DNA of 9,032 nucleotides from a virus (taxonomy: Duplodnaviria > Heunggongvirae > Uroviricota > Caudoviricetes), in IMG/VR virus record IMGVR_UViG_2693429599_000008; one strand, given 5' to 3'. Below, in pieces: positions 3,499 to 4,185 of this stretch. Each line of letters begins with the position of its first letter. Position 1 is the first letter of the stretch. The position numbers and the translations under genes are program-made. The notes under the pieces were generated by a model. That model was not told the origin of the DNA, searched no databases, and saw nothing but the letters and a program-made list of their open reading frames with translations.

Positions 3499-3615
3499 GG
3501 GGATTTATCGATTTCTAATCCCTTGATATGTTAGGTATATAATCCAACACTCATGGTCGCTCTCATAAACATATCCCTTGAGACGCAGCAGATTACAACA
3601 AATGAAGCCATATAA

Positions 3616-3930
3616 ATGAACAGTAAAGAAAGTTTGCGCAGAAGATTTTTACAACTAATGACAGAAAACGTTAAATCAGAGTTACTTCTTCTGATGGCAG
3701 ATAATAACGAAGCAACAAGCAGCATTCTTGCAGACCCTTACGGTAAGATCTCACATAAAACGCTGGATATTATTACCACAACATTAACACCGCTGATGCT
3801 TCAACGGCTGAAACATAATATCAACGCATGGGTTAATGAAGAATTAAGTCCTCCCTGCTTATGGGATTCTCGTTACGCATGTCAGCAAAAAATGCGAATT
3901 TTCAACTTACTATCACCAAAGCTCAGGTAG
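3616..3930 (+). CDS. Hypothetical 104-aa protein encoded opposite to the lysis genes in an AT-rich insert between holin and endolysin
   Basis: Uninterrupted 104-codon ORF in AT-rich DNA, where chance ORFs of this length are unlikely. No strong SD. Upstream TTGATA (3523-3528) and TATAAT (3538-3543) are spaced too closely to be a canonical promoter. No family recognised. Confidence 0.4.
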   Translation: MNSKESLRRRFLQLMTENVKSELLLLMADNNEATSSILADPYGKISHKTLDIITTTLTPLMLQRLKHNINAWVNEELSPPCLWDSRYACQQKMRIFNLLSPKLR

Positions 3931-4185
3931 CCATAAAATCCTGCCCTTCATGGCATACAGGATTTCAATGGAATCACAATGACCAACTCTTGCACAGCTG
4001 TATCCCTGACTCCCCGACAACTCAGATTTTCAGTATCTGCTGCTATCTAAAGAGAAAGCGCACAAATGCAAGGGTCTTTCATCACGTCCTGTTATTGATT
4101 GCCTGTGACCTTTTCTTACCTCATGGAACGTTTTTTCAGTTAGAAATATTCATTTTACAACCAGTTCGTATTGTTTATTCATCGA

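Follow-up and report, generated by a model that had tools for sequence, protein, structure and literature searches.

A small backward gene, plausibly moron-like, in the remains of a cargo slot between the holin and endolysin genes of a prophage

Accessory genes such as bor and lom of phage lambda are self-contained, lie in the late operon, often have an atypical base composition and are expressed from the prophage. In lysis cassettes, signal-anchor-release (SAR) endolysins like phage 21 R and P1 Lyz can lyse cells without a holin, while the holin gene S of phage 21 has a second, upstream start that is used for the antiholin form. The closest known item to the locus described here is the pair of genes orf5 and orf6 of the Shiga toxin (Stx) phage 86, both of which are uncharacterised. 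The pinholin and SAR-endolysin cassette of Stx phages has been described (PMC8136144, PMC10462455), without mention of cargo between S and the endolysin gene R. Here we report on the interval between S and R in a 9,032-nucleotide stretch of the IMG/VR virus record IMGVR_UViG_2693429599_000008 (the window, to which coordinates refer unless another sequence is named) and on the small gene that this interval contains. The interval holds the remains of a variable cargo slot, and with moderate confidence we consider its intact, constrained small gene to be a moron-like accessory gene.

The small gene and its product

The gap between R and S, as delimited by the list of open reading frames (ORFs) and by Pfam matches, extends exactly from 3499 to 4185 (687 base pairs, bp). 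The AT-richness noted in the preliminary description is confirmed, the GC content being 0.39 in the gap compared to 0.543 in R and 0.522 in S, and so is the ORF at positions 3616–3930, which has 104 codons and lies on the plus strand, antisense to R and S. The GC content of this ORF is 0.384, and at third codon positions it is 0.37, against 0.60 and 0.65 in the flanking lysis genes. At the composition of the gap about 6.5% of random codons are stops, and the chance of a 104-codon open stretch is around 0.001 per start position.

Sequence comparisons indicate that positions 3616–3930 form a real protein-coding gene under purifying selection: the product has full-length homologues, the ratios of non-synonymous to synonymous substitution (dN/dS) are low, and the ORF has changed less than its flanks. 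Residues 1–102 of the protein align to positions 57–158 of the 159 positions of the phrog_1853 profile, which is also matched by a homologue, P0009 (E 8.5e-44); PHROG 1853 carries no functional label and is a family of unknown function. Among 5.8 billion protein clusters searched, 16 homologues were identified; those of full length comprise 104–109 amino acids (aa), are 64–79% identical and have the amino-terminal sequence MNSKE.LR..FLQL in common. Because the homologues share this amino-terminus, the 104-codon start is preferred over the start chosen by PGAP, which yields a 90-aa protein. The family is narrow, since only 20 members emerged from an exhaustive profile search covering 1.84 billion cluster representatives; full-length homologues extend down to 21% identity, with the amino-terminus and motifs still kept at that distance. 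The dN/dS values range from 0.13 to 0.39 for 13 pairs (the window gene against five homologues, and homologues among themselves); for two more pairs, saturation of dS precluded a ratio.

When the interval is compared with a 96%-identical allele from strain A39, 39 differences are present in the 687 bp. The ORF contains eight of these in 315 bp (2.5%), leading to three amino-acid changes, while the flanks contain 31 in 372 bp, made up of 12 in the 117 bp upstream (10.3%) and 19 in the 255 bp downstream (7.5%). The divergence of the flanks is three to four times that of the small gene. The preliminary description had allowed that the ORF might have no homologues or that the real gene might be on the minus strand; homologues were found, and homology to a minus-strand pseudogene ends at 3937, outside the ORF. 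The minus-strand ORF at 3531–3725 is without a family match in Pfam.

The 104-aa protein has a mass of 12.1 kDa and an isoelectric point of 9.3 and contains neither a hydrophobic or transmembrane segment nor a signal sequence. Its AlphaFold2 model is a five-helix bundle, with a predicted local distance difference test score (pLDDT) of 86, and the product is predicted to be soluble, all-helical and cytoplasmic. A second plus-strand ORF, of 120 codons (3861–4223), overlaps the end of the small gene, a pseudogene remnant and the end of S. This ORF is open in the 96% allele too, but the changes are mostly non-synonymous, and it is probably spurious. Across the same stretch the locus tags of strain Sakai jump from ECs_1097 to ECs_1100.

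According to the preliminary description, ydfR occupies the same place in the Qin prophage of E. coli K-12. The position is right: in the Qin-type cassette L002, a gene annotated as 'YdfR family protein' is located between S and R, on the strand of both. The suggested homology is not, as BLAST and profile checks of the 104-aa protein against YdfR and DUF1327 show no match. Identity of the protein with YdfR (DUF1327, PF07041) was ruled out, no Pfam family being reached at E ≤ 0.01; its homologues reach no Pfam family at E ≤ 1, and for the protein itself no match above cut-offs was obtained in Pfam, NCBIfam or PADLOC. In tblastn of the window with YdfR, only a 10-codon remnant is matched, on the strand opposite to that of the 104-aa ORF. 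The strand implied for ydfR was also wrong, ydfR being co-directional with S and R (loci L002, L012 and L014; phage 86 and PhiR12_2). It is located on the S and R strand, a few bases after the S stop codon, a layout that the 104-aa ORF does not share.

Remains and relatives of the slot

The view that a simple insert has entered an adjacent S–R pair does not hold. The interval is a decayed two-gene slot, containing a wrecked long ydfR gene and the intact small gene (Table 1). In BLASTN, only 3499–3536 and 4147–4185 of the interval are homologous to ydfR-type cassettes. The R-adjacent spacer holds the translation-initiation region of R, and its TAA at 3531–3533 (minus strand) is the ydfR stop codon in Qin-type cassettes. 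At the other end, homology to the ydfR-bearing loci L002, L012 and L014 covers 4147–4400, and the minus strand of 4147–4185 reads ATG AAT AAA CAA TAC GAA CTG GTT GTA AAA TGA. This start of ydfR begins 3 nucleotides after the S stop codon and matches both YdfR and the DUF1327 protein of PhiR12 in tblastn.

Between the small gene and the ydfR start lies a remnant of the carboxy-terminal domain (C-domain) of a long YdfR-family gene. Positions 3978–4112 correspond to profile positions 54–98 and score 14.2 bits in hmmsearch on the correct strand, compared to a maximum of 5.9 bits in 1000 shuffled sequences; tblastn gives E 6.7e-6. The remnant contains two in-frame stops and a frameshift, and the terminal '(L/M)KGRI' of the C-domain is retained at 3937–3951 in another reading frame. 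Its divergence from the 96% allele (19 of 255 positions) is as expected for neutral sequence. For the 220-bp remnant segment no intact close relative was found; it is present only in the same decayed arrangement.

Loci with diverged homologues of the small gene (L003–L005 and L008–L011) have a two-gene slot, in which a lysis-strand gene of 189–222 aa just after S is followed by the small gene, convergent to it; the 3' ends of the two are 9 bp apart or overlap. In Stx2 phage 86 (L012) the order is S, gp05 (268 aa, 'YdfR family protein'), gp06 (104 aa, backward) and R, a layout shared by an Stx2a phage of strain 12E129. The forward long gene belongs to PHROG 1085 and is a mosaic of a DUF1327 amino-terminal domain (sometimes absent), a coiled coil and a conserved C-domain of around 110 aa; among YdfR-family genes, the carboxy-termini are variable. 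In Stx2_95, a Stx2a phage, a long ydfR gene is 36 bp from R and there is no small gene. Of 80 IMG/VR loci in which a C-domain gene is present, 35 also carry the small gene, the distance from the C-domain gene to R being around 456 bp; in 42 the C-domain gene is 40–46 bp from R and the small gene is missing. The small gene and its upstream region thus behave as an insertion or deletion of about 400 bp.

In phage 86, the C-domain extension and orf6 are flanked by an 8-bp direct repeat, ATCTTCAG (around 2385–2393 and 3265–3273 of L012). Loss of the DNA between the two repeats would restore a short ydfR, with ...SLK(I/T) followed by a stop codon at its end, which suggests that short and long forms of ydfR interconvert via recombination at microhomology. 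An alternative ydfR carboxy-terminus is present in Stx1a and Stx2a phages (L016, 2035–2736, and L017, 2026–2727). There, an unannotated gap of 511 bp before R is spanned by a backward ORF of 233 codons, which overlaps the end of the forward gene and has no match in Pfam or PHROG.

More distant homologues of the small protein, with 34% and 21% identity, are again convergent to C-domain homologues, with overlapping 3' ends. The C-domain partners are 35% identical (E 1e-21) for the former and 42% identical over a partial gene for the latter. These pairs are not located between a P21-type S and R, but adjoin holins of the families Phage_holin_3_1 and Phage_holin_2_3, which indicates that the pair is old and has moved as a unit. 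The linkage of small gene and C-domain is therefore conserved across deep divergence and different genomic contexts. Co-occurrence is not obligatory, given the 42 C-domain genes without the small gene and around 630 genomes in which the only partner is a pseudogene.

The survey of the slot covered 73 cassettes from IMG/VR, in all of which the holin shares at least 91% identity with the window S. Adjacency of S and R, the premise of the preliminary description, is found in 26 of them, where the gap is 5 bp or less and contains nothing, and is absent from the rest. In 17 loci a gap of around 400 bp contains a short ydfR, in four a gap of 590–610 bp contains the C-domain gene alone, three (687–688 bp) are of the window type, and 23 (691–1316 bp) hold various combinations. 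Next to R (L021–L100, for example L073, L077, L032 and L057), at least five unrelated small genes occur, always backward: PHROG 1853, the family of the window, PHROG 2411 (90 aa), PHROG 18136 (87–91 aa), PHROG 2572 (86 aa, labelled 'DUF1823' in PhiR12_2) and PHROG 10490 (95–116 aa). All five are of unknown function, and hhalign detected no homology of the other four to PHROG 1853. The C-domain is also found beside PHROG 10490. Phage PhiR12_2, the record of which lists E. coli K-12 MG1655 as host, likewise carries the slot with backward cargo.

Copies of the 687 bp that are at least 99% identical are present in 623 chromosomes; in all, 631 of 5426 complete E. coli genomes carry the interval. 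The carriers are mostly O157:H7, with others among O26, O103, O111, O121 and O145 strains. The small-gene family as a whole is present in 674 of the 5426 genomes, and the insert DNA occurs in the S–R slot only, with a median of one copy. The gene is named ECs_1097 in Sakai (prophage Sp4) and is labelled 'unknown protein encoded within prophage CP-933O' in EDL933. A nucleotide search of a phage collection left the insert unmatched, matches being obtained at the protein level only, and a scan of species-representative genomes gave no confirmed relative. In Sakai Sp4 (L020, 1,184,000–1,186,400), the holin gene, ECs_1097, the endolysin and endopeptidase genes and pchA form a block whose orientation as a whole is reversed with respect to both of its neighbours, namely the Q gene, tRNAs and nanS-p to one side and the terminase to the other; copies of IS629 and ISEc8 are located at the two ends of the inverted block.

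Table 1. Positions of features in the window and of distant homologous gene pairs in other loci
Feature	Position	Strand	Evidence or remark
Endolysin R, 177 aa, T4-lysozyme-type	2965..3498	-	PF00959, E 7.6e-24
R-adjacent spacer, common to all slot variants	3499..3533		BLASTN of 3400-3536 to L002, L012, L014
Upstream region or leader specific to the small gene	3534..3615	+	TATAAT 3538-3543; GA-rich stretch
Gene of the 104-aa protein, PHROG family 1853	3616..3930	+	phrog_1853, E 3.5e-47
Decayed pseudogene remnant, C-domain of long YdfR-family gene (PHROG 1085)	3937..4112	-	hmmsearch, tblastn
ydfR 5' remnant: ATG and 9 codons (MNKQYELVVK), then TGA	4150..4182	-	direct reading; BLASTN; tblastn
Holin S, phage-21-type class II (pinholin family), 68 aa	4186..4392	-	PF04971
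Distant convergent pair	L102 1425-2264		
Distant convergent pair	L103 1010-1852		
Distant convergent pair	L101 487-963		

Proposed role and rival explanations

The small gene may be regarded as a 'moron', a self-contained accessory gene inside the late operon, which would comprise about 400 bp including its own upstream region. It is present or absent between collinear phages (Stx2_95 compared to the 12E129 phage and phage 86), and its base composition is unlike that of the neighbouring genes. Probably it is transcribed on its own, away from R. The backward orientation of the cargo would then be explained because a constitutive forward promoter would express the SAR-type endolysin in the lysogen; transcription away from R would avoid this and would run harmlessly antisense into ydfR and S. 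The 12-kDa soluble five-helix product probably exerts its effect by binding another protein and does not belong to the lysis machinery, and the most specific candidate partner would be the C-domain protein, with which it seems to have been paired since before the families diverged to 21–35% identity.

Concerning expression signals, of the four sequences of the lineage three, the window included, retain TATAAT and the fourth has TACAAT (alignment A3), and the GA-rich stretch is 9–13 nucleotides before the ATG of the small gene. Between lineages the upstream region is 58–74% identical, no higher than third codon positions, so this comparison provides no evidence for a conserved promoter, and the 12 differences in 117 bp to the 96% allele show that the region is not strongly constrained. 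The hairpin after the stop codon of the small gene folds no better than shuffled sequence, and Rfam at a permissive threshold revealed nothing in the insert.

Several points count against the moron-like reading. A scan for sigma-70 consensus promoters passed none in the window, L003, L008 or L012, and an intrinsic terminator for the small gene was found neither in the window nor in three relatives; independent expression is for this reason something that we infer. Fold and profile searches with the 104-aa protein gave generic helical matches only, and a protein-binding role is what would generically be predicted for a small soluble helical bundle. Either gene, the small one or that of the C-domain, can occur without an intact copy of the other, so the proposed partner is uncertain. 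In the library searched, no paper names the small gene, which could also be a passenger without a current role in this degraded prophage.

A more specific proposal, which we think rather unlikely, is that the C-domain protein is a late effector or toxin and the small protein its inhibitor, similar to an antitoxin or immunity protein. The effector would have decayed in the window and the antidote would have been kept to protect the lysogen, for example against superinfecting phages carrying the effector. This proposal is favoured by the persistence of the convergent pairing, in which the 3' ends often overlap, from 79% to 21% identity of the small protein and in different holin contexts, and by the small gene being intact and constrained while its neighbour is a pseudogene. 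In complete E. coli genomes the orphan form greatly outnumbers the others (around 630 of 674 carriers), although this count is inflated by clonal sampling of O157:H7, and the carboxy-termini of the YdfR family vary as in polymorphic effectors. However, the 42 C-domain loci lacking the small gene, including Stx2_95, imply that the C-domain is not lethal without the small protein, and the same C-domain occurs beside a different backward gene, PHROG 10490. Neither protein matches PADLOC, and Pfam and NCBIfam matches (E 0.027–0.22) are below curated cut-offs; searches of PDB sequences with profiles of the small-gene and C-domain families gave nothing significant. The C-domain model, of poor quality (pLDDT 53), is unlike any toxin fold. 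The more general idea that the C-domain gene and the convergent small gene make up an uncharacterised two-component system tied to lysis cassettes, which could consist of, for example, a late-expressed effector and a constitutively expressed inhibitor, is in our estimation unlikely. Regulation in cis, in which convergent transcription or antisense RNA lowers or delays read-through from S to R and tunes the timing of lysis, with the protein secondary, is less likely again. All five unrelated cargo genes are backward and immediately upstream of R, and the geometry of the locus forces late transcripts to cross the small gene antisense in order to reach R. Against this, purifying selection acts on the protein and the noncoding flanks are not conserved, 26 of the 73 cassettes are without cargo and 17 have only a forward ydfR, no promoter or terminator was detected, and avoiding endolysin expression in the lysogen is a simpler reason for the orientation. 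Transcription of the small gene may oppose late transcription, as suggested in the preliminary description. The earlier remark that the insert separates R from S translationally has little force, R being at least 42 bp from the preceding gene already in ydfR-type cassettes.

We consider it highly improbable that the ORF is non-functional, an antisense open frame in a decaying prophage with the real ancestral coding sequence on the minus strand. The prophage is degraded, part of the interval is a minus-strand pseudogene, the ORF at 3861–4223 demonstrates that spurious ORFs occur here, and PGAP calls the shorter, 90-aa version. However, plus-strand dN/dS is well below 1, full-length homologues are found at the same place in deposited phage genomes, the pseudogene homology ends at 3937, outside the ORF, and the minus-strand ORF at 3531–3725 lacks a family match. 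Even less probable is transposition of a mobile element, be it an insertion sequence, a miniature inverted-repeat element or a homing cassette, between S and R. The presence or absence of the small gene between collinear cassettes and the 8-bp repeat around the C-domain extension and the small gene in phage 86 would fit such an event, but deletion or illegitimate recombination at microhomology explains the repeat equally well. In the window the interval has no terminal inverted or flanking direct repeats, no transposase, integrase or nuclease domain is present, and among the 5426 genomes the insert DNA is confined to the S–R slot, with its median of one copy.

Lysis genes, neighbourhood and comparison with known systems

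The window S matches PF04971, 'Bacteriophage P21 holin S', from end to end (E 1.9e-32) and is annotated in databases as 'class II holin family protein'. In R, the most hydrophobic window of 19 residues starts at residue 9 (Kyte-Doolittle 1.67), and residues 9–27 form a hydrophobic stretch rich in glycine and alanine at the amino-terminus, as expected of a SAR endolysin; close copies of R carry the RefSeq label lysozyme/rrrQ. The genes would thus constitute a lysis cassette of the phage 21 type, with a P21-family holin and a lysozyme with a predicted SAR segment, an assignment that agrees with the one made for Stx phages (PMC8136144). Upstream of S, the minus strand of 4393–4410 reads GGAGACATACATCAG-ATG, in which the in-frame codon three positions upstream is ATA; in some relatives (for example L016) an ATG is present at this position. 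The window allele seems to lack a second upstream (antiholin) start like that of phage 21.

The prophage is degraded and rearranged (1–2686 and 4840–5847). An Rz-like ORF of 99 aa (2387–2686) is truncated, its match to the profile being limited to the first 42 of 126 positions; also truncated is a DUF6645/NanS-p-like ORF of 335 aa, compared to 616–654 aa in relatives. No complete E. coli genome contains the window in one piece; among the matches listed, the best begin at 2427 or later. A toxin and antisense-RNA locus of the hok/sok type is located at 6015–6340 (minus strand), with a Hok-like ORF of 70 aa at 6015–6227 and, at 6165–6340, a full-length match to sok (RF01794, 120.5 bits, E 9e-28), the only solid Rfam match in the window. 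At 5925–6006 (minus strand) there is a weak match to IsrK, a small RNA of Salmonella prophages (RF01394; E 0.011), whose 27.2 bits fall short of the gathering score of 50; at its end a GC-rich hairpin precedes a run of U. At the edge of the window (1–981, minus strand), in AT-rich DNA with a GC content of around 0.33, lies a full-length gene for a type III effector of the SseK/NleB family, of 326 aa (PF24688, E 3e-181).

The small gene is already annotated as hypothetical and is of a familiar architectural kind, and its immediate significance is modest. Mildly new are its pairing, both deep and separable, with the C-domain of long YdfR proteins and the strictly backward hotspot for cargo at the holin–endolysin junction. 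The S–R junction of phage-21-type cassettes, a variable cargo site with strict orientation, is a place to seek small accessory proteins. The gene is present in prophages of about one eighth of complete E. coli genomes, mainly O157:H7 and other Shiga toxin producers, and also in Stx-converting phages; its position is between the pair of genes by which phage and toxin are released. Were the small gene or its C-domain partner to act on superinfection, on defence or on the timing of lysis, this could affect how Stx phages spread and how toxin is released. Should the two-component idea be true, the site upstream of R would be a hotspot at which at least five unrelated backward genes for conflict between phages or between phage and host are exchanged, and the orphan small gene would be actively protecting O157:H7 and the other Shiga-toxin-producing E. 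coli that have kept it, rather than being a relic.

When the locus is compared with Qin of E. coli K-12, the slot between phage-21-type S and R is the same, and the first 10 codons of ydfR and its stop codon are still present in the window; unlike the 104-aa protein, YdfR is encoded on the lysis strand, and the two have no sequence similarity. With toxin–antitoxin and effector–immunity pairs, the window gene shares the linkage of a small gene to a larger one with variable carboxy-terminal regions and, as for orphan immunity genes, the survival of the small gene alone after loss of the larger one. Unlike in those pairs, the genes are convergent and not co-directional, the larger gene is alone in 42 of 80 loci, and no known defence or toxin family is matched. 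The likeness to lambdoid morons is that one small gene, foreign in composition (GC 0.39), is present or absent in the late operon of collinear phages, and bor is also oriented against late transcription (reverse, next to Rz, in phage 86). Unlike the products of bor and lom, the window protein is cytoplasmic, without a signal sequence or membrane segment, and its gene has a recurrent partner; also unlike lambdoid morons, its own promoter, terminator and expression in the lysogen are features that we infer. Compared with phage 86, in which orf5 (gp05, 268 aa, DUF1327 and C-domain) is intact, the window retains 10 codons and a decayed fragment of this gene, and the regions upstream of the two small genes are unrelated, with a GC-rich hairpin in phage 86. 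The small genes themselves correspond closely: orf6 (gp06, YP_794053.1) is homologous to the window gene, with 49–53% identity, likewise encodes 104 aa and is likewise oriented backward between S and R, immediately upstream of R.

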